64,000 nucleotides of DNA, taken from Parcubacteria group bacterium Gr01-1014_30. GTDB lineage: Bacteria; Patescibacteriota; Minisyncoccia; Minisyncoccales; 2-12-FULL-40-12. Both the position numbers and the translations under genes were made by a program. Below the pieces are notes generated by a model. It saw only the letters and a list, made by a program, of their open reading frames with translations. It had not been told where the DNA came from and made no database searches. This document shows, piece by piece, positions 3,788 through 45,260 of this stretch. The first letter of the stretch is position 1. Each line of letters begins with the position of its first letter. Location: NCBI GenBank assembly GCA_007376185.1, contig VMFS01000007.1, positions 1,390 to 65,389 of the forward strand. Reading direction: 5' to 3'.

Positions 3788-3800
3788 GCATTCCTTCAGA

Positions 3801-3836
3801 AAAAACACGGCGCCTTGGCGCCGTGTTTTTTCTTGC
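3801..3836 (+). terminator. rho-independent terminator
   Basis: aaaaacacggcgcc-ttgg-cgccgtgttttttc: GC-rich stem followed by a T tract, directly after the rhodanese stop codon. Confidence 0.65.
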
Positions 3837-19285: not shown

Positions 19286-19332
19286 TTATGTATCACTATT
19301 TCGCCATGGTATTTTAGCGATATAATTTTAAC

Positions 19333-19373
19333 GGGGGCAGTTGTGCTAAGCCCGGCTTAGCACAACTGCCCCC
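19333..19373 (+). promoter_or_regulatory. 41-nt perfect palindrome in the predicted 5' leader of the MBL/ComEC-like gene
   Basis: gggggcagttgtgctaagcc-c-ggcttagcacaactgccccc, about 7 nt downstream of tataat (19321-19326) and 8 nt before ATG 19381. Confidence 0.45.
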
Positions 19374-19380
19374 GACGAGA

Positions 19381-20247
19381 ATGAGCAAAAGAAAGAATCC
19401 CGTTTTTTTGTTTTTGGCGGTTTTGGTTGGGCTTAACGCGCTGGCGTGGGCGGCGGTTTACGAGTTACGGAGCGGGGGACTGGAAGTTGTTTTTTTTGAC
19501 GTCGGCCAGGGCGACGCCACGCTTATTGAAACTCCCCAGGGCCACCACATTTTGATTGACGGAGGCAGAGATTCAACCATTCTGGAAAAACTGGGAAAAG
19601 AAATGCCTTATTGGAAAAGAAGCGTTGACTTGATTATTCTGACGCACCCCCATTACGACCACATGGCAGGATTTATAGAAGTTTTGAAGCGGTACAAAGT
19701 TAAAAATATTTTGTGGACGGGCGTTCTTTCAAGGGACGTAACTTTCAAAGAATGGCAAAAGTTAATTGCCAAAGAAGAGGGCAAAGTTTACATAGCTAAA
19801 ACCGGTCTGCAAGTTAAATCAGGAAAAGCTGTTTTAAAAGTGTTTTATCCTTTTGAGAGTTTTGAAAACCAAGAAGTTGAAGAAATAAACGACACTTCGG
19901 TTGTCGCCAAACTCATTTTTGGGCATAACACTTTTTTATGGACAGGCGACGCTTTCAAAGATCTTGAACTTGATTTAGTGCGAAAGGGGATTGACGTTGA
20001 TTCTGATGTTTTGCAGGCGGGGCATCACGGTTCCAGAACTTCTTCGGCTCCAGAATTCATAGAAGCGGTTTCCCCGGAAATTTTTGTGGTTTCCTCGGGT
20101 CGTAACAACGTTCACGGCCACCCGCACTCTGAAACATTGGAAACATTGGCAAAATATGATATAAAAGTTTTAAGAACGGATGAACTTGGCGACGTAAAAA
20201 TAATTTCAGATGGCCTCGGGCTGGTTGTAAAGTTTTCTAAAATATAG
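19381..20247 (+). CDS. MBL-fold hydrolase, ComEC/Rec2 C-terminal-domain-like, membrane anchored
   Basis: N-terminal TM segment. VVFFDVGQGDATLIETPQGHHILIDGG, HPHYDH and AGHHGS. Confidence 0.75.
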   Translation: MSKRKNPVFLFLAVLVGLNALAWAAVYELRSGGLEVVFFDVGQGDATLIETPQGHHILIDGGRDSTILEKLGKEMPYWKRSVDLIILTHPHYDHMAGFIEVLKRYKVKNILWTGVLSRDVTFKEWQKLIAKEEGKVYIAKTGLQVKSGKAVLKVFYPFESFENQEVEEINDTSVVAKLIFGHNTFLWTGDAFKDLELDLVRKGIDVDSDVLQAGHHGSRTSSAPEFIEAVSPEIFVVSSGRNNVHGHPHSETLETLAKYDIKVLRTDELGDVKIISDGLGLVVKFSKI

Positions 20248-28240: not shown

Positions 28241-28279
28241 TGGGCCTTTGGGCTAAGCCGGGCTTAGCCCAAAGGCCCA
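28241..28279 (+). promoter_or_regulatory. 39-nt palindrome upstream of paralog 2
   Basis: tgggcctttgggctaagcc-g-ggcttagcccaaaggccca. Shares the apical gctaagcc/ggcttagc core with 19333-19373 but has different outer stems. Confidence 0.45.
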
Positions 28280-31581: not shown

Positions 31582-31699
31582 ACCCCGTTAGTAGTTCTTG
31601 GAAAAAAATTTTTTCCTCTGAACAGACGGGGTCAAACAGAAAAACATATGTTTGTCCGAAATCGGTATCTATCGTATAAGGGCAAACTACTAACGGGGT
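31582..31699 (+). promoter_or_regulatory. 15-bp perfect inverted repeat bracketing the infA-rpmJ spacer
   Basis: accccgttagtagtt (31582-31596) pairs with aactactaacggggt (31685-31699). The right arm overlaps the rpmJ GTG start. Confidence 0.5.
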
Positions 31700-35084: not shown

Positions 35085-35165
35085 ACCCCGTTAGAAGTTT
35101 CTATAAAATAAAGTAATAAATAATTTTTTTATGATGATTTTGGATAACTTAACTTCTAACGGGGT
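35085..35165 (+). promoter_or_regulatory. second copy of the ACCCCGTTAGNAGTT inverted repeat
   Basis: accccgttagaagtt (35085-35099) pairs with aacttctaacggggt (35151-35165), around an AT-rich loop upstream of pdaD. Confidence 0.5.
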
Positions 35166-38301: not shown

Positions 38302-39195
38302 ATGAAGACCTTTTTAGATTTAGCGTCTTTGGGCTTGGTAGACAATGTTAATTTTGAAAACGCCGACGCGGTAGTCGTGCCTTTCGGCTACGAAGGTACC
38401 GTAACTTTCGGCCGCGGCGCGTCCAAGGGCCCGGCCAGCTTAATTGAGGCCTCCTCGCAAGTTGAGACATTTGACGACGAGCTTTTGGACGACATTCAAA
38501 ATCAGATTAAAATTTGGACTTTGAAACAGCCGTCTCTGCCAAAAAAACCCGAAGCCGCCAGCTCACTTTTGCAAAAAATCGTTTCAGAGTTAATTCAAAA
38601 AAACAAGTTGCCGGTTGTTGTGGGCGGCGAACACTCAATCAGCTACGGAGTTGCGCAGGGCCTGAGTGAACATTATCGGGATATTTCCGCGCTGGTTTTT
38701 GACGCTCATTTGGATTTGGGCGACCAGTGGTCTAAAAAACCTTTTACGCACGCGGCTTGGCTGAAATATTCGTTTGGGCTTCCGAGCGTGAAAAACGCGG
38801 CGCTGGTCGGGATTCGCAATTTCAACAAACTGGAGTACGCGTTTTGGCAAAATAATCACGACCGCGTGAAAGTTTTCTTGGCAAAAGACCGCCGCGGCTG
38901 GAGCGCTGACGAGATAGTTTCTTCTTTGGACAGCAACGTTTACGTAAGTTTTGACATTGACGCTTTTGATTCATCGGTAATGCCTTCAACGGGCACGCCG
39001 GAACCCGGAGGCCTGTTTTGGGACGATGTTTTGCCCATTCTGCGCCAGGTTTGCGCGCGAAAAAATGTTGTTGGTATGGATTTGGTGGAGCTGGCTCCAA
39101 TCAGGGGCCTGCGCGCCCCCGATTTCCTGGCCGCCAAGCTTTTGATGAAAATGATTCTGTACAAGTTCTGCGTCACGAAGTTGAAAGTTTACTAA
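38302..39195 (+). CDS. speB: agmatinase/ureohydrolase family protein
   Basis: GGEHSISYG, FDAHLDLGD, SFDIDAFDSSVMPSTGTPEPGGL and MDLVELAP Mn-binding motifs. Confidence 0.8.
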   Translation: MKTFLDLASLGLVDNVNFENADAVVVPFGYEGTVTFGRGASKGPASLIEASSQVETFDDELLDDIQNQIKIWTLKQPSLPKKPEAASSLLQKIVSELIQKNKLPVVVGGEHSISYGVAQGLSEHYRDISALVFDAHLDLGDQWSKKPFTHAAWLKYSFGLPSVKNAALVGIRNFNKLEYAFWQNNHDRVKVFLAKDRRGWSADEIVSSLDSNVYVSFDIDAFDSSVMPSTGTPEPGGLFWDDVLPILRQVCARKNVVGMDLVELAPIRGLRAPDFLAAKLLMKMILYKFCVTKLKVY

Positions 39196-39366
39196 GCGCG
39201 CCAGTCGCTTTCGTTAACCGTATCTCGCCCGCTCCAGCGGCGGGCGGATACTGCGCTCTCGGCAAAATACCCCTTCTGTAAAACAGGCGGGGACCAAGCT
39301 ATTTTGCCTCCGAGAGCTTCCCGAAATGCGACTGGCGCGCTTTATTGATATGATGTATAATTTACT

Positions 39367-39448
39367 CCATGCCAGGTAGTGAAAACTCCGCCACTGCCGA
39401 AGGCAGTGAAATAATTACGATTGGCGGAGTTTTCACTACCTGGCATGG
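39367..39448 (+). promoter_or_regulatory. 26-bp perfect hairpin covering the secA start codon
   Basis: ccatgccaggtagtgaaaactccgcc (39367-39392) pairs perfectly with ggcggagttttcactacctggcatgg (39423-39448). The secA ATG is at 39445-39447. Confidence 0.6.
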
Positions 39449-42081
39449 GGATTTTAACTAAAATTTTCGGCGACGCCAACGAAGCGTATCTCAAAAAACT
39501 TCAGCCCTTTGTTGAAAAGATCAACTCGCTTGAAAAAGAGTACGAGGCTTTTTCCGATGAAAAACTCAAAGAAAAAACCCAAGAACTGAAAAACAAGGTC
39601 AATGGAACGCGGGTCGCTGAGACTTCGTCTAATCTCCCGCCTCGCTCACCGAGCCCGAATAGGGCGAAGGTAAAGACGAAGTTTCAACTTCGTCTGACGG
39701 CTTCGCCGAGTTCGGCGAAAGACGCCGTTTCATTGGAGGGGGTGTTGCCAGAGGCGTTTGCTTTGGTTCGGGAAGCCGCCAAAAGAACTTTGAGGCAGAG
39801 GCATTTTGACGTTCAGCTGATCGGAGGCATTGTTTTGCATCAGGGCAAAATCGCTGAAATGAGAACCGGCGAAGGAAAAACTTTGACCGCCACCCTGCCT
39901 TTGTATTTGAACGCATTGGAAGGCAAGGGCTGTCATTTGGTTACGGTAAACGACTACTTGGCAAAAAGGGACGCAGTGTGGATGGGGCAAATATATCATG
40001 CACTGGGGCTGTCCGTCGGGTGTATTACGCATGAAACGGCCTATTTGTACGACCCAACAGCCAAGCAGGACGCAGAAAGAGACACGCTCGGAGGATTCAA
40101 AGTTATTGAAGATTTTTTGAGACCGGTTTCAAGAAGAGAGGCGTATGAGGCCGACCTTACTTACGGAACTAACAATGAGTTCGGGTTTGACTACTTAAGA
40201 GACAATATGGTTTATGATTTGCCGCAACAGGTTCAGTCCCGATTGCAAAGCGATCGAGGATCCTCGACTTCCTTGGAGTCGGGACGCGGATTTAATTTTG
40301 CTATTGTTGACGAAGTCGACTCAATTTTAATTGACGAGGCGAGAACCCCTTTGATTATTTCCTCTCCGGACGTGGAGAGCTCAAAATGGTATCTTGATTT
40401 TGCTAGAATTATTCCACGATTAGACCCCAAAACCGACTACGAGATTGACGAAAAACTGCGGGCCGTAACCTTGACCGAACAAGGCATCAACAGAGTTGAA
40501 AAAATTTTGGGCTTGGGCAACATTTACGAAGAAAAAGGTATAAAATACTTGCATCATTTGGAACAGGCCTTGAGAGCTGAAGTTCTTTTCAAAAAAGACA
40601 GGCACTATGTGGTTAAACAGGGGCAAGTGATAATTGTTGACGAGTTCACGGGTCGTTTGATGCCCGGGCGCAGGTGGTCAGGCGGTCTGCACCAGGCAGT
40701 GGAAGCGAAAGAAGGTGTTAGAGTACAGCCCGAATCTTTGACCTTGGCCTCAATAACTTTTCAGAATTACTTCAGGATGTACAAAAAACTGTCAGGCATG
40801 ACGGGAACGGCCGTAACTTCTGCCGAAGAGTTTGACAAGGTTTATAACTTGGACGTTACTGTCGTGTCTACCAACAAGCCAATGGTTCGTCAGGACCTGC
40901 AAGACCGCGTTTATAAAAATTCTGAAGGCAAGTTTAGCGCTTTGGTCGGAGAAATCAAAGAAAGACACAAAACGGGCCAGCCGGTTTTGGTAGGGACTAC
41001 TTCAATTGAGAAAAACGAGTACTTGAGCAAGTTATTGACAGCTGAGGGCGTGCCTCACCAAATTTTGAACGCCAAGAACCACGAAGCAGAAGGCGCCATA
41101 ATTGCTCAGGCGGGCAAGCCGGGCGCTGTAACCATTGCCACGAATATGGCGGGCAGGGGAGTGGATATAATCCTGGGGGGCAATCCCCAGGACCCTGAGC
41201 AAAGTCGAAGGGTTTTGGAAGCAGGCGGACTCCATGTTATCGGCACCGAACGCCACGAAGCCAGAAGAATTGACAACCAGTTGCGGGGAAGATCGGGCAG
41301 GCAGGGGGATCCTGGTTCTTCCCAGTTTTTCATTTCGCTTGAAGACGACGTAATGAGAATTTTCGGCGGAGACAGGTTGAAATCCTTAATGACGGCTTTG
41401 AAGATTCCCGAGGACCAGCCCATTGAAGCCGGATTGGTTTCAAAAGCCATTGAAGAAGCTCAGTCAAAAATTGAGGGGTTTAACTTTGACTTGCGCAAGC
41501 ACTTGCTGGATTACGACGACGTTATGAATAAGCATAGAGAAGTTATTTATAAAAGGAGAAGGCAGTTTTTGTCAACTGAGGATTGGAAGACGGAAGTTGG
41601 AAATTGGACGAAAAACGAAGAAGAGAAAAAAATTCTTGAGCAAAAAGAAAAGGAATTGGCAGAAAACTTTAATCAAGTTGCCAAATTCATCGCTCTAAGG
41701 ACTTTAGACATGCTTTGGATGAACCACTTGGAGGAAATGGAGGCACTGCGGGATTCTGTACGTTTGCGGGCTTACGGGCAGAGAGATCCGCTTGTGGAGT
41801 ACAAAAATGAAGGCCACAAAATGTTTCAGAATCTTTTGCGCTTGATTGAAACAAATATAGTTCAGATGCTTTTCAGAGCTCAATTGACAAAAGAACCTAA
41901 GGGACATGTTCACCACCCCGCCGCGGCGCCAGCCGCGGCCAAGGTTGGCAACAAAGTCGGCCGCAACGACCCCTGCCCGTGTGGAGCGATTAACCCTAGT
42001 ACGGGGGAAGTCTATAAATATAAAAAATGCGGGCTTATTAACGCACCTTATCATAAAGAAGGGCAATCCAAGATTTTGTAA
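39445..42081 (+). CDS. secA: preprotein translocase ATPase SecA
   Basis: The track ORF starts at ttg 39421; the canonical start is [10 protein letters not shown] at 39445. [44 protein letters not shown], and the C-terminal CPCG...KKCG zinc motif. Confidence 0.9.
39600..39735. repeat. in-frame palindromic insertion 1 inside secA (about 135 nt)
   Basis: Outer arms caatggaacg / cgtttcattg. Inner gagacttcgtct / agacgaagtttc, and ttcgccga-gt-tcggcgaa. Encodes roughly 40 extra residues between ELKNKV and [11 protein letters not shown] relative to E. coli SecA. Confidence 0.6.
40236..40285. repeat. in-frame palindromic insertion 2 inside secA
   Basis: gtcccga...tcgggac arms around the 14-bp perfect palindrome tcgaggatcctcga. 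Encodes [16 protein letters not shown] directly before FAIVDEVDS. Confidence 0.6.
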
Positions 42082-42634
42082 GTTTTAATAGTTCTTTCCG
42101 TGCTTTTGGTATTTTCGATCGAGCATTCAATTTCAAAAACTCCCTTGTTATAAGTGCATGACAATTAGGACAGACAACCATTAAGTTATCTATTTCATGT
42201 TGACCTCCTTGATGTTTTGGTGTTATGTGGTGGGTGTCAATTGTTAGGTTGTAATTACACAGTTCACACACCTTCCCATATTTTTTAATTGCTTGAGCCC
42301 TAATCCATGCTTTATGTTTTTTGATTTCGCCATATAGATATTTTTTGATACCTAAGTTCCTTCTTCGATACTTCACCGTCCATAACGTAGATCCTTTGTA
42401 ATCTTTTTCTCTTAACGCTTTTGCAATTTCTTTATCGAGCATAGTACCACAATTCTTGCGGATGAAATCATCCACAAATTCATGCGGTAGTCTTTCCAAT
42501 GCTTGATACGCACCCTTTTTTAATTCAGGATATCCATGACGTCTGACTCGTGCCAAATGCATGATACAGTAGATTTGCCTGGTATTCTTATATCGTGTAA
42601 AGTTTTTACACTCTTTTACTCTACATTCCGGCAT
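42038..42634 (-). CDS. HNH endonuclease
   Basis: [40 protein letters not shown], with an N-terminal Cys/His cluster. Its 3' end overlaps the secA 3' end by 44 nt. Lies in AT-rich sequence. Confidence 0.8.
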
Positions 42635-42704
42635 ATTAGTATATTATAACTTTGATAGCGCTAAAACGCAACAAGTTTTATTTTTTATAAGTATAAAAAA
42701 TGTT

Positions 42705-42968
42705 ATGGAAATTGATTTAAAAAAGTACTGGGATTTATTGAAGGGCGGATGGGACGATATGGATAACCATCGGCTCGAGCTGGAAGCGAAAAGGATTCGA
42801 TTGAAAAATTACGCATATAGATATGGACGGAGCGCTGGAGAATTAAATCGCGAGTACGTCATTGAACGTTTACAGAAGCGACGAAAATGGCTTATAGCTA
42901 CAATTGTTCCAATCGTTTTTGGGTTTTTAGCATTATCAGTAAAGATACTCGTTACCCTATATTCATAA
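42705..42968 (+). CDS. hypothetical small membrane protein
   Basis: 87 aa with C-terminal TM segment WLIATIVPIVFGFLALSVKILV. Confidence 0.3.
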   Translation: MEIDLKKYWDLLKGGWDDMDNHRLELEAKRIRLKNYAYRYGRSAGELNREYVIERLQKRRKWLIATIVPIVFGFLALSVKILVTLYS

Positions 42969-43006
42969 GTAGTTTCTGTAATAAGATAACAAATACAAGC
43001 TTTGTC

Positions 43007-43297
43007 ATGGAGGTTGAGGTTACTGAAGTTATAACAACAGTAGTGGGAATTGTAGGTGTGTCGACAATACTCTGGTACATTGTAGGACTGGCAAGAGTAA
43101 TTTTCTATGAACGTAATATCAATAAGACACACGATTTTCTTGAAAGGAGTAGGAAAGAAATTAAAAAAGAAGGACTATCAGTAGATGGTATAAATGCAAG
43201 AATGTCTGAGCTAGAAAGAGAATGGCTTCCGAAGCTAGAAAAAATGAAGAGGAAAAGGAGATTTATACTAGATAAACTCCCCTTTATTAGAAGGTAG
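43007..43297 (+). CDS. hypothetical small membrane protein
   Basis: Track ORF 42887-43297; likely start is ATG 43007 (MEVEVTEVITTVVGIVGVSTILWYIVGLA). One TM segment, then a charged coiled tail. Confidence 0.3.
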   Translation: MEVEVTEVITTVVGIVGVSTILWYIVGLARVIFYERNINKTHDFLERSRKEIKKEGLSVDGINARMSELEREWLPKLEKMKRKRRFILDKLPFIRR

Positions 43298-43329
43298 TCG
43301 TATGGCTGGGTTAAGAAGTATTAAATTAC

Positions 43330-43551
43330 ATGCGAAGTATAAAGAATCAAAAACAAAAGGCAATACTGGACAAAATGTTGCGTATAATCAAAAAGCAGCC
43401 CGGTATCAGGCCGAGCGAGTTGAACCGACTCCTGCATCTTGAACATTCAGCCCATCTTCGCAACGCGCTTATCAAGCGAGGATTGTTGAGAAAAAAGAGA
43501 AAAGGAGCGACAGTGTATTATTATCCTGTACATAGCGCGTCGTTGACTTAA
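43330..43551 (+). CDS. small winged-helix DNA-binding protein (putative)
   Basis: 73 aa. ILDKMLRIIKKQPGIRPSELNRLLHLEHSAHLRNALIKRGLLRKK. Confidence 0.4.
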   Translation: MRSIKNQKQKAILDKMLRIIKKQPGIRPSELNRLLHLEHSAHLRNALIKRGLLRKKRKGATVYYYPVHSASLT

Positions 43552-43577
43552 GAGATATATTAGTTTATTATAAAATT

Positions 43578-43814
43578 ATGAACACCATTACTATCCCTAA
43601 AAAAATGAGCCGGAAAGGCGATTTGGTGGTTGTGCCTAGGATAGATTACGAACATATGCTTAAGATCAGCCAGCGGCTTTTGCGGGAGGAAAAAGACACG
43701 GACGAGGCGATTAGAGTTTTTGAAAGGGAAAGAAAGATCGGGAAGCTGAAGAGGTCTTCAAGCTTTTACGACATTCTCGTCGGAAGAGATAAATCTCTTC
43801 CTTATCTTCGCTAA
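43578..43814 (+). CDS. putative antitoxin
   Basis: 78-aa ORF 10 nt upstream of a RelE/YafQ-like gene remnant. Confidence 0.35.
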   Translation: MNTITIPKKMSRKGDLVVVPRIDYEHMLKISQRLLREEKDTDEAIRVFERERKIGKLKRSSSFYDILVGRDKSLPYLR

Positions 43815-43824
43815 CGCTAGATAG

Positions 43825-44086
43825 ATGAGGCGAATTTTATATTCTTCTAAGTTTAAGAAAAACTTGAAGAAGATGCCTGATTTTGTTAAGGAAGCTTTCC
43901 TTGAAAAGGAAAGTTTGTTTTTAAGCAACCCCTTTCACCCTTCCTTGGAGACGCATAAACTTCACGGGAAGTACAAAGAGTACTGGGCTTTTACGCTCCA
44001 TAGGTCAGTACAGAATTATGTTTAAGTTCATTGGTAAAGGAGATTTTGGTTTTATCAACGTAGGTACTCACGAAATCTATAAGTAA
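43825..44086 (+). pseudogene. RelE/YafQ-like toxin with a frameshift
   Basis: ORF 43825-44025 ends ...HGKYKEYWAFTLHRSVQNYV*. Shifting the frame by one nt near 43997 gives SIGQYRIMFKFIGKGDFGFINVGTHEIYK* (stop 44084-44086), the expected RelE-type C-terminus. Confidence 0.55.
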
Positions 44087-44104
44087 GTGAGAGGCCTCTT
44101 AAAT

Positions 44105-44500
44105 ATGAAACAGTTGACGTTTAGGCTAAAACCAGGGCAGTTTTTGAGGGAGGAGATTGAGAAAAGAGCCAAAAACATTCCGGCAGGAGTTTTGTTGGCG
44201 GTGGTAGGTAATCTTGATTTTGCCGTTTTGCGAATGCCGGGAGCTACACCTAAAAAGCAAGTCGTTAAAAAATTGAAAGGCCCCTTTGAAATAGTGTCGG
44301 GAAATGGCACAATTTCAAAAGGCGGATGCCACATTCACGTATCTTTGTCTGACAAGGCGGGGAAAGTTATCGGCGGACATTTGAAGCACGGGTGCAGGGT
44401 TCGCGCCACGGTTGAGGTCGTTATAGCGGTTTTTGATGAAGTTGTTTATAAAAGAGAACGGGACGAGGATACTGGTTTTGAAGAATTAGTTGTGGAATAA
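44105..44500 (+). CDS. PPC/DUF296 domain protein
   Basis: Likely start is MKQLTFRLKPGQ. GPFEIVSGNGTIS...HIHVSLSDKAGKVIGGHL pattern. Confidence 0.6.
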   Translation: MKQLTFRLKPGQFLREEIEKRAKNIPAGVLLAVVGNLDFAVLRMPGATPKKQVVKKLKGPFEIVSGNGTISKGGCHIHVSLSDKAGKVIGGHLKHGCRVRATVEVVIAVFDEVVYKRERDEDTGFEELVVE

Positions 44501-44506
44501 AATTTT

Positions 44507-44932
44507 ATGGAATATCCGCAAAACGTGCCAAAAGTTGGGGTGGGGGTGTTAATCTTCAAAGAAGGGAAAATTCTGCTCGGCAAGCGCAGAGGGTCTCACG
44601 GCGAGGGAGAATACGCGCCTCCGGGCGGCCACCTTGAGTATATGGAGTCATTTGAGGATTGCGCGAGAAGGGAAACAAAAGAAGAATGTGGGCTTGAGAT
44701 AAAAAACATCAGGTTTCAGTTTGCAGCAAATGTTTTTGAGTATACTCCCAGGCATTACGTTCACATCGGATTGGTCGCCGACTGGAAAGCAGACGAGCCA
44801 GAATTGCTGGCGCCTGAAGAGGTTGAGGGGTGGGATTGGTACGATTTAGACAAACTTCCAGAGCCCTTGTTTGAGATACAAAAATTGGCAATGGAGGCGT
44901 TAAGAACAGGAAAGAATTACTTTGATGCGTAA
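44507..44932 (+). CDS. NUDIX hydrolase
   Basis: Nudix box GGHLEYMESFEDCARRETKEECGL. Confidence 0.85.
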   Translation: MEYPQNVPKVGVGVLIFKEGKILLGKRRGSHGEGEYAPPGGHLEYMESFEDCARRETKEECGLEIKNIRFQFAANVFEYTPRHYVHIGLVADWKADEPELLAPEEVEGWDWYDLDKLPEPLFEIQKLAMEALRTGKNYFDA

Positions 44933-45260
44933 GAGTCAAAATTCAAAAGTCAAGATAGTCGTGTTTGCGCCGGCCTCAAAAACGGCCAAAATTAGAGAAG
45001 TGATGGGCGAAGCCGGCGCGGGGAGAATTGGAAAATATACTTTTTGCAGTTTTTCGGCAAAAGGCATTGGCAGATTTAAGGCAGTAAACGGCGCGCGGCC
45101 CGCGATTGGCAAAATTGGAAAGTTAGAAGAAGTTTTGGAAGAGAGAATTGAAATGGTGTGCGAAGGGGAAAAGTTAAAAAAGGTGCTGGCCGCAATAAAA
45201 AAAGCCCACCCTTACGAGGAACCTGCCATTGACGTTTACCCGCTGGAGGAAATAAGATAG
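44922..45260 (+). CDS. small protein resembling the NIF3/YqfO PII-like insert domain (putative)
   Basis: KIVVFAP...IREVMGEAGAGRIGKYTFCSF...GRFKAVNGARPAIG...AHPYEEPAIDVYPL. Confidence 0.4.
   Translation: MMRKSQNSKVKIVVFAPASKTAKIREVMGEAGAGRIGKYTFCSFSAKGIGRFKAVNGARPAIGKIGKLEEVLEERIEMVCEGEKLKKVLAAIKKAHPYEEPAIDVYPLEEIR

Follow-up and report, generated by a model that had tools for sequence, protein, structure and literature searches.

In Escherichia coli, secM encodes a secreted protein of 170 amino acids with a signal peptide and a C-terminal arrest motif, and the ribosome stalled on it exposes the Shine-Dalgarno sequence of secA. Here we describe a secA gene whose start codon lies within a long perfect hairpin, found in a 64-kb stretch of a groundwater Parcubacteria genome (Parcubacteria group bacterium Gr01-1014_30, contig VMFS01000007.1); this whole stretch is called the window below. 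A first-pass annotation of the window had noted the hairpin, an apparently leaderless upstream open reading frame (uORF) of 30 codons that traverses it, and a conceptual similarity to secM-secA coupling. As in E. coli, an open reading frame upstream of secA would be translated through a stem that otherwise occludes secA initiation. Unlike secM, however, it specifies an acidic peptide of 30 residues without a signal or an arrest motif, a Shine-Dalgarno sequence that could be exposed is missing, the two reading frames overlap, and the arrangement is not conserved. We propose, with a probability of roughly 0.6, that the hairpin is a lineage-specific insertion of 76 nt, consisting of a 72-nt palindromic element resembling a miniature inverted-repeat transposable element (MITE) and a duplicated CATG, in the start codon of an ancestrally leaderless secA, and that SecA is expressed by translational coupling.

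Palindromic DNA in or next to essential genes is also found in Rickettsia, where the Rickettsia palindromic elements form multi-copy families of about 100-150 bp inserted in frame. As in those cases the gene has not been destroyed, and secA of the window also carries an in-frame insert of 37 amino acids encoded by an imperfect palindrome. The start-codon element differs from the Rickettsia families in being out of frame, shorter, and single-copy in the sequences searched.

The Correia elements (CREE/NEMIS) of Neisseria are bacterial MITEs, of which the shortest CREE class measures 69-73 bp (PMC2649163; PMC2229807; PMC10969869). The element described here, at 72 nt, is likewise small and non-coding, with terminal inverted repeats of about 22-26 bp and a short target duplication. 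Like it, CREE are frequently inserted directly 5′ of genes (one gonococcal copy has the A of the ATG as its final base), give an RNA hairpin that is a possible RNase III substrate, and vary in presence and absence among relatives. In contrast to CREE, our element has no sequence similarity to them, is flanked by a duplication of CATG rather than TA, and is known from one copy as against about 120-250 in Neisseria; it sits inside the start codon of a leaderless essential gene, where it creates a uORF, and it has neither an IHF site nor a demonstrated promoter.

In mycobacteria, leaderless short open reading frames control downstream genes in an attenuator-like manner (bioRxiv 10.1101/834739; PMC4633059). 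At the locus studied here, too, an AUG right after a −10 box opens a short first cistron, whose translation is proposed to determine downstream expression. The mycobacterial frames, in contrast, are conserved and contain diagnostic codon runs (e.g. polycysteine) that sense a metabolite, whereas here there is no such run, the frame occurs in one genome, and it derives from the gene's own start codon. The arrangement is best filed as a Correia/MITE-like palindromic insertion in a 5′ region, set apart by its target, the start codon of an essential leaderless gene, and by the leaderless uORF that resulted.

Results

The secA start codon lies in a perfect inverted repeat

The two arms of the repeat are 100% complementary and are separated by 28 nt (Table 1). 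The repeat had been reported as perfect and 26 bp long; it is indeed perfect, and its length is 27 bp. The inner hairpin, and the position of the secA ATG inside the right arm in a frame other than that of the uORF, were as the first-pass annotation had them. No further match to the arms, allowing up to three mismatches, was found in the 64-kb window, where shuffled sequences lead one to expect none. When the segment 39361-39470 was folded as RNA, its minimum free energy was −63.4 kcal/mol, compared with −23.7 ± 3.3 kcal/mol for 200 dinucleotide shuffles (z = −12.0), and 0/200 shuffles were as stable. Among the 5′ regions (−80 to +20) of 56 gene starts in the window, that of secA was the most structured by far, with −63.4 kcal/mol against a mean of −17.1 (standard deviation 7.5) for the other 55 (z = −6.2). 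The Logan assembly of SRR8863434 contains an identical sequence at the hairpin, possibly built from the same underlying reads. The hairpin is real, with its coordinates corrected by one base, and it is statistically extreme.

The loop contributes a further pairing partner: in a constrained fold, the segment 39401-39411 was able to pair with 39431-39441 of the right arm once the left arm was occupied. Beyond the end of the stem at 39450 comes AUUUUAACUAAAAUUUU (the sequence 3′ of the stem reads AUUUUAAC). The 28-nt loop and interrupted U-tract are atypical for an intrinsic terminator, and a scan gave no call there; partial intrinsic termination of untranslated transcripts at the AUUUU tract 3′ of the stem is possible.

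Known classes of structured RNA did not account for the hairpin. No Rfam 15 covariance model matched the window at its gathering score. Relaxed E-values brought up only microRNA-precursor models; these fell far short of threshold and matched either strand, as long hairpins generically do, and were rejected. An RNA thermometer was also rejected, since a perfect stem of −63 kcal/mol is unable to melt within physiological temperatures.

Relatives align without gaps once 76 nt are removed

We compared 18 secA loci from Patescibacteria with that of the window. Thirteen came from a genome collection, and the five closest relatives (L082, L083, L084, L085 and L090) were reached through a protein database and their contigs. 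A search of GTDB representative genomes with SecA had yielded relatives of at most 68% identity, too distant for dating an insertion; the five closest share 73-78% identity with SecA of the window, whose sequence matches exactly the database entry for SecA of Parcubacteria group bacterium Gr01-1014_30. In a MAFFT alignment with these five, the window differed by a single unbroken insertion of 76 columns. With 39372-39447 deleted, the window aligned colinearly and without gaps to each of the five, beginning at the −10 box and continuing into coding sequence, at 67-76% identity over 89 nt; in the excised alignment, for example, TATAATTTACTCCATGGGGATTTTAACTAAA of the window stands opposite TATAATTTCTTTTATGGGAATAATAACTAAA of L085. 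The empty site obtained by removing the insertion reads TATAATTTACTCCATGGGGATTTTAAC.

No stem spanning the secA start and no uORF was present in any of the 18 loci (13 Patescibacteria loci and all five closest relatives). The first-pass annotation had itself named a lack of conservation in relatives as grounds against its regulatory proposal, and neither the hairpin nor the uORF is conserved (0/18), even in the one syntenic relative. In this relative, L082, the agmatinase gene is directly followed by secA as in the window, with a spacer of 67 nt versus 249 nt in the window. The N-terminus of SecA read from ATG 39445 aligned residue for residue with those of six relatives (M[GS]I[LI]TKIFGD). 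A start at the upstream TTG 39421, which had been offered as an alternative, lies within the insertion and has no counterpart among relatives.

The ends of the insertion are marked by two copies of CATG (Table 1). The bases flanking the two copies differ, so the direct repeat is exactly 4 bp. The two ATGs at 39369 and 39445 are 76 nt apart, and the excised form keeps the 7-nt spacer to the −10 box whichever CATG copy is counted as the original. The difference between the 27-bp repeat and the 22-bp terminal repeats of the element is explained by the palindromic CATG, which supplies 4 of the 5 extra bp; the last C:G pair would arise by chance (p = 0.25).

Several features expected of a MITE were thus found. 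The element is short (72 nt) and non-coding with perfect 22-bp terminal repeats, and it is flanked by a CATG duplication; as CATG is palindromic, a fold-back origin would look alike. It also varies in presence and absence at orthologous sites, being a single 76-column insertion relative to five relatives and absent in 13 more, none of them near-identical strains.

Table 1. Positions of features at the secA start, numbered from the first letter of the window.
Feature	Positions	Strand	Basis
−10 hexamer TATAAT, perfect, 7 nt (ttactcc) before ATG 39369; best −35 only 3/6; no TGn extension	39356..39361	+	sequence, −35 scoring
Left arm of 27-bp inverted repeat	39367..39393	.	repeat search, fold
CATG, left copy; 4-bp direct repeat, candidate target-site duplication	39368..39371	.	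sequence
uORF, 30 codons and stop; ATG at the ancestral secA start position; TAA 39459-39461 within the conserved secA codons ACT AAA	39369..39461	+	ORF list, alignment
Putative inserted element, 72 nt; perfect 22-bp terminal inverted repeats CCAGGTAGTGAAAACTCCGCCA / TGGCGGAGTTTTCACTACCTGG (39372-39393 / 39422-39443), 28-nt centre	39372..39443	.	76-column alignment gap
Inner hairpin cactgcc-gaa-ggcagtg, 6-bp, within the loop of the large stem	39392..39408	+	fold
AGGCAGTGAAA, direct near-copy of left-arm AGGTAGTGAAA (39374-39384)	39401..39411	+	repeat search, constrained fold
TACGAT, sole TAnnnT within the element; weak candidate internal −10 (speculative)	39416..39421	+	sequence; no −35 or TGn
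Right arm of 27-bp inverted repeat; holds the secA ATG 39445-39447	39422..39448	.	repeat search, fold
CATG, right copy; supplies the present secA ATG	39444..39447	.	sequence, alignment
secA, 878 aa, full length, every SecA Pfam domain present	39445..42081	+	ORF, domain search, alignment

The geometry of secA in relatives suggests an ancestrally leaderless gene

We scrutinized the sequences preceding secA in the relatives. A −10-like hexamer stands 7 nt before the secA ATG in L085 (TATAAT), L084 (TAGAAT) and L083 (TAAAAT), 9 nt before it in L090 (TATACT), and 11 nt before it in L082 (TATAAT). A −35 element of TTGAAA or TTGAGA is present in L083 and L084 with a 17-nt spacer and in L085 with a 16-nt spacer. 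Across all 18 loci, the spacer from TAnnnT to the secA ATG had its mode at 7 nt (7/18) and fell between 6 and 9 nt in 12/18, as compared with 0-4/18 in control bins further upstream. In the window, TATAAT followed by 7 nt leads to ATG 39369, not to the secA ATG. Leaderless genes have this geometry, with TAnnnT placed 6-9 nt ahead of the ATG, and the comparison indicates that secA is ancestrally leaderless. Direct initiation of 70S ribosomes on 5′-terminal AUGs, and 70S scanning and coupling, are established (PMC9031893).

The −10 box of the window had been assigned to 39355-39360, 8 nt before ATG 39369. The box is present, at 39356-39361 and with a spacer of 7 nt. It had also been likened to that of pgk (60740; Pfam PGK); the context tgatgTATAAT is common to both, whereas the pgk spacer is 8 nt as against 7 nt here. 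Leaderless geometry was also seen at about 10 window genes besides pgk, including purD, a DeoC-family gene and an FtsA-like gene. The motif TAnnnT lies 6-9 nt before the ATG of many genes at operon heads, e.g. 7353, 13311, 16820, 25816, 30466, 30868, 35878, 42634 (minus strand), 43578 and 60740, often with gTTG at −35 or a TGn extension.

As first described, secA has no usable Shine-Dalgarno sequence; a GGAG ends 15 nt upstream. This is not distinctive of secA, as almost no gene in the window has one. Such a pattern implies, as far as sequence can tell, that leaderless mRNAs are widespread in this Parcubacteria lineage, whose genome would be almost free of Shine-Dalgarno sequences.

The uORF is probably a by-product of the insertion

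The predicted 30-codon reading frame exists as annotated from ATG 39369, with 30 residues and then a stop. On the insertion account, each of its parts would follow from the event itself. The gene before insertion would have read TATAAT-7 nt-ATG GGG ATT. Duplication of CATG would have kept one ATG at the old position, 39369, and placed a second, 39445, at the head of the coding sequence. The length of the insertion is not a multiple of three (76 mod 3 = 1), which puts the old start out of the secA frame. The stop codon TAA is formed by the conserved secA codons ACT AAA, which encode the T-K of M-G-I-L-T-K-I-F, so that the position of the stop is also a by-product. The minus strand holds a twin reading frame that likewise opens with MPGSENSA and contains GGVFTTWHG; since CATG is self-complementary, the ATGs of the uORF and of secA mirror each other. 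The uORF thus appears to be a by-product of a start-codon insertion and not an evolved leader peptide.

The peptide itself gave no sign of a function. The N-terminus of its 30 residues is acidic, a positively charged n-region is missing, hydrophobic stretches stay below about 10 residues, and neither a signal peptide nor a transmembrane segment was detected. The residues contain no ribosome-arrest motif of the SecM type (FxxxxWIxxxxGIRAGP) and no regulatory codon run. Among 1.84 billion representative proteins, a profile search returned no real homologue. Its sole match, P0121, is an adhesin of 1609 amino acids with 14 tandem repeats, in which the GSLAITSGGVWTY repeat adds up to a spurious score, and it was discarded. 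A protein search with a 54-residue concatenation of the plus- and minus-strand peptides gave 0 matches. The defining features of a secM-like coupling, namely a signal peptide or hydrophobic segment, an arrest motif and a homologue, are therefore lacking, and this part of the earlier proposal fails.

How SecA may be made from the interrupted start

Comparative evidence carries the account from the insertion as far as the uORF stop; the steps of expression that follow we infer. SecA of the window is full length and conserved, and therefore it must be made. Transcription would start about 7 nt after TATAAT, which would put the 5′ end of the mRNA at or beside AUG 39369. Ribosomes of the 70S type would load on this 5′-terminal AUG while the right arm, 53-79 nt further downstream, is yet to be transcribed, and those translating the uORF would prevent or unwind the stem. 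The first-pass annotation had argued that ribosomes translating the uORF would have to melt the stem, and this reasoning is supported for any ribosome that starts at 39369. Translating ribosomes would stop at UAA 39459-39461, 14 nt past the secA AUG, and their footprint would keep AUG 39445 single-stranded; in a fold constrained by the footprint of a terminating ribosome, this AUG was unpaired. Re-initiation at AUG 39445, 14 nt upstream, would then take place by short-range back-scanning, that is, by coupling of termination to re-initiation. Bidirectional short-range scanning after termination is known from work on phage RNA. In transcripts that fold before a ribosome loads, both AUGs would be locked in the −63 kcal/mol stem; such transcripts would be silent, and the AUUUU tract might terminate them or RNase III cleave them.

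Among the routes considered (coupling, RNase III cleavage, and an internal promoter), we tentatively rank coupling through the old start first, because the ancestral promoter-AUG geometry is intact and a locked AUG without a Shine-Dalgarno sequence has no other obvious access. The arrangement would then be a tolerated accident that makes synthesis of SecA depend on translation from the old start, and not an evolved sensor.

A stronger version can be formulated, in which the insertion now serves as a co-opted kinetic gate: only transcripts that undergo co-transcriptional 70S loading, unwinding of the stem and backward re-initiation at the duplicated AUG would yield SecA, the others being locked, terminated or cleaved. 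We hold this to be unlikely. If it were true, secA would be the first essential secretion gene of the candidate phyla radiation (CPR) to depend on a leaderless uORF coupled by termination-reinitiation, and a natural example of a leaderless gene that survived the insertion of a hairpin in its start codon.

Discussion

The observations can be read in other ways, which differ in how SecA is made or in how the palindrome arose. The uORF might be irrelevant, with SecA made from mRNA that lacks the left arm, owing either to an RNase III cut that leaves a 3′ fragment starting in the right arm just 5′ of AUG 39445 or to an outward-facing promoter starting near 39429. A perfect duplex of at least 27 bp is a classical RNase III substrate, and a short unstructured leader would match the other gene starts of this genome without Shine-Dalgarno sequences. 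In Neisseria, the terminal-repeat hairpins of Correia elements in mRNA are cut by RNase III, and promoters can arise at their ends (PMC2649163). The enzyme is assumed here from a phylum-level statement that rnc is among the ribonuclease genes kept in at least 90% of CPR genomes (PMC12641178), and no RNase III signature motif was found in a six-frame translation of the 64-kb window. For an internal promoter, TACGAT is the candidate −10 and also occurs 8 nt before the secA ATG in the relative L024, but in the window it has neither a −35 element nor a TGn extension. Neither processing nor an internal promoter explains why TATAAT-7 nt-ATG is retained exactly; a recent insertion would retain it anyway. 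On balance we regard this explanation as rather doubtful. Lower still we place an evolved device that tunes secA translation to a physiological signal and is functionally similar to secM-secA. A leaderless AUG, a stem over the secA AUG and a uORF stop 14 nt past that AUG would suit such a device, and the alternative pairing of 39401-39411 with the right arm resembles the topology of an attenuator. All these elements, however, are missing as an arrangement from every relative compared. The uORF start can be derived from mirror symmetry and duplication, with a twin on the minus strand, and its stop from conserved secA codons; the acidic peptide lacks a signal or transmembrane segment, an arrest motif, a regulatory codon run and a homologue; and a perfect stem of −63 kcal/mol far exceeds known tunable sensors. 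We consider the device improbable.

It is very unlikely, in our judgement, that the palindrome acts as DNA, as an operator or cruciform, or that it arose de novo by template-switch (fold-back) replication. The 11-mer AGG[T/C]AGTGAAA does occur three times within 68 nt, twice direct and once inverted, as an operator might; its enrichment in the window is marginal and comes almost wholly from this locus (6 matches versus 2.5 expected; 2/100 shuffles reach 6), and no regulator gene is adjacent to secA. Template switching would give perfect arms, a repeat that runs into native sequence (CCATG/CATGG) and an apparently single-copy element, all of which are seen. The extension of the repeat, however, is accounted for by the 4-bp palindromic duplication and the single chance pair mentioned above, and no donor sequence was found in the window. 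We attach almost no weight to the idea that the hairpin is an assembly artefact or that secA is being inactivated. Palindromes can stem from errors of assembly or amplification, and both assemblies carrying this one may share reads, but the palindrome lies in the interior of a ~70-kb contig, its 28-nt centre is unique and asymmetric, and intact genes border it on either side; secA, for its part, is full length with all domains, is 78% identical to relatives and shows no frameshift.

Several points weigh against the proposal that a MITE-like insertion is read through by coupling from the old start, and they concern its history as well as the expression of SecA. In the 64-kb window, neither the 27-mer at 3 mismatches nor blastn-short turned up another copy of the element, whereas a MITE would be multi-copy in its genome or in related genomes. 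Searches with a 19-mer in JGI metagenome contigs and with a 17-mer in IMG/VR gave four matches, all of them to one arm in unrelated sequence; the JGI collection lacks the source genome. A stretch of 20 nt shared with the element inside a coding region of L086 was judged to be due to chance. No translated copy of the element peptide was present among the proteins searched. Membership of the MITEs is unproven, and we infer mobility solely from the anatomy of the element and its presence or absence. Since the closest relatives reach only 78% SecA identity, the insertion cannot be dated, and none of the loci examined is a true empty-site allele. In favour of a genome that accumulates such DNA are the other lineage-specific insertions in the secA locus and a pair of repeat-bounded elements elsewhere in the window, which are described below.

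On the side of expression, the promoter at 39356-39361 has no −35 element and no TGn extension, as is also the case for pgk, and a scan for the sigma-70 consensus did not call the TATAAT there. The scan missed it because there is no −35; the missed call is not decisive, because pgk and other genes of the window also lack one. In the window, a 149-nt structure has replaced the −35 region of relatives, and read-through from the agmatinase operon may make AUG 39369 internal instead of 5′-terminal. The 5′ AUG is base-paired in the folded RNA, which should inhibit leaderless initiation in our model unless loading is co-transcriptional. We know of no demonstration in this phylum of back-scanning re-initiation without a Shine-Dalgarno sequence.

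If the insertion and the coupling are as proposed, the locus is a natural experiment in which an essential leaderless gene survived a strongly structured insertion in its start codon. Two things would account for its survival: a new ATG supplied by the duplication, and an old start still able to attract ribosomes that melt the stem. It would also mean that selfish or accidental DNA can couple a uORF to a hairpin in a single event, with no need for selection in steps. The comparison adds evidence that secA and many other Patescibacteria genes are expressed from leaderless mRNAs in genomes largely without Shine-Dalgarno sequences. No conserved new regulator of protein secretion emerges from it. 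For annotation it advises caution, in that a hairpin with a uORF in a single genome needs comparison with relatives before it is read as regulatory; the secA case itself rests on a single genome.

Additional structured sequences at the locus and in the window

The spacer between agmatinase and secA holds a second structure, a three-way junction of 149 nt at 39194-39342, with an 18-bp terminal inverted repeat over the agmatinase stop codon and two inner GC-rich hairpins. Folded together with the secA hairpin (39185-39470), it gave −152 kcal/mol (z = −13). It takes the place of the plain terminator and −35 region of relatives, L082 having a plain terminator in its 67-nt spacer. It had no Rfam match and no second copy in the window.

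Six relatives lack an in-frame insertion of 37 amino acids that secA of the window carries at codons ~53-95 (~39603-39730). The DNA encoding it forms an imperfect nested palindrome whose arms, 39655-39669 / 39701-39715, enclose a perfect 10-bp repeat (39674-39695), and it recalls the in-frame Rickettsia palindromic elements. A search of a protein word index with the insert peptide gave no match and missed even the source protein P0001, so that it is uninformative for queries this short. We considered whether the three structured insertions around secA form one family and rejected this, as they share no sequence similarity. Just after the start, at 39448-39470, secA codons 2-9 of the window and the relatives contain the conserved ATT TTA ACT AAA ATT TT(T/C) (I-L-T-K-I-F), which is a small A/U-rich inverted repeat (AUUUUAACUAAAAU) and forms a 9-bp hairpin.

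Downstream, the 3′ end of secA shares 44 nt with an HNH endonuclease gene on the minus strand (42038-42634). After this gene come, within 42038-45260, three small open reading frames without a Pfam domain above threshold, then genes for PCC-domain, NUDIX and weakly P-II-like proteins, and then secD (45265) and secF (46543). In relatives, 1-3 short genes lie between secA and secD (L082-L085), and secF follows secD where the contig reaches that far (L082 and L083). The region 42038-45260 may be an inserted island.

Two further elements, at 31582-31699 and 35085-35165, lie within the same 15-bp inverted repeats, ACCCCGTTAG[T/A]AGTT ... AACT[A/T]CTAACGGGGT, and have unrelated interiors of 88 and 51 nt. 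Their terminal inverted repeats can be written ACCCCGTTAGWAGTT...AACTWCTAACGGGGT, and the arm sequence occurs 4 times where 0.34 occurrences are expected. The arms CCCCGTTAG/CTAACGGGG also form plain hairpins at other Patescibacteria loci (L021:2677-2741 and L022:2907-2935), which makes them a recurring motif in the phylum.

Long perfect palindromes were present at 19332-19374, 28241-28279 and 3798-3833, with arms of 21, 19 and 17 nt, respectively, and 1-2 nt between the arms. That at 3798-3833 resembles a bidirectional terminator (AGAAAAAACACGGCGCC/GGCGCCGTGTTTTTTCT). Those at 19332-19374 and 28241-28279 have the core GCTAAGCC-N-GGCTTAGC in common and closely precede genes that start at 19381 and 28292.

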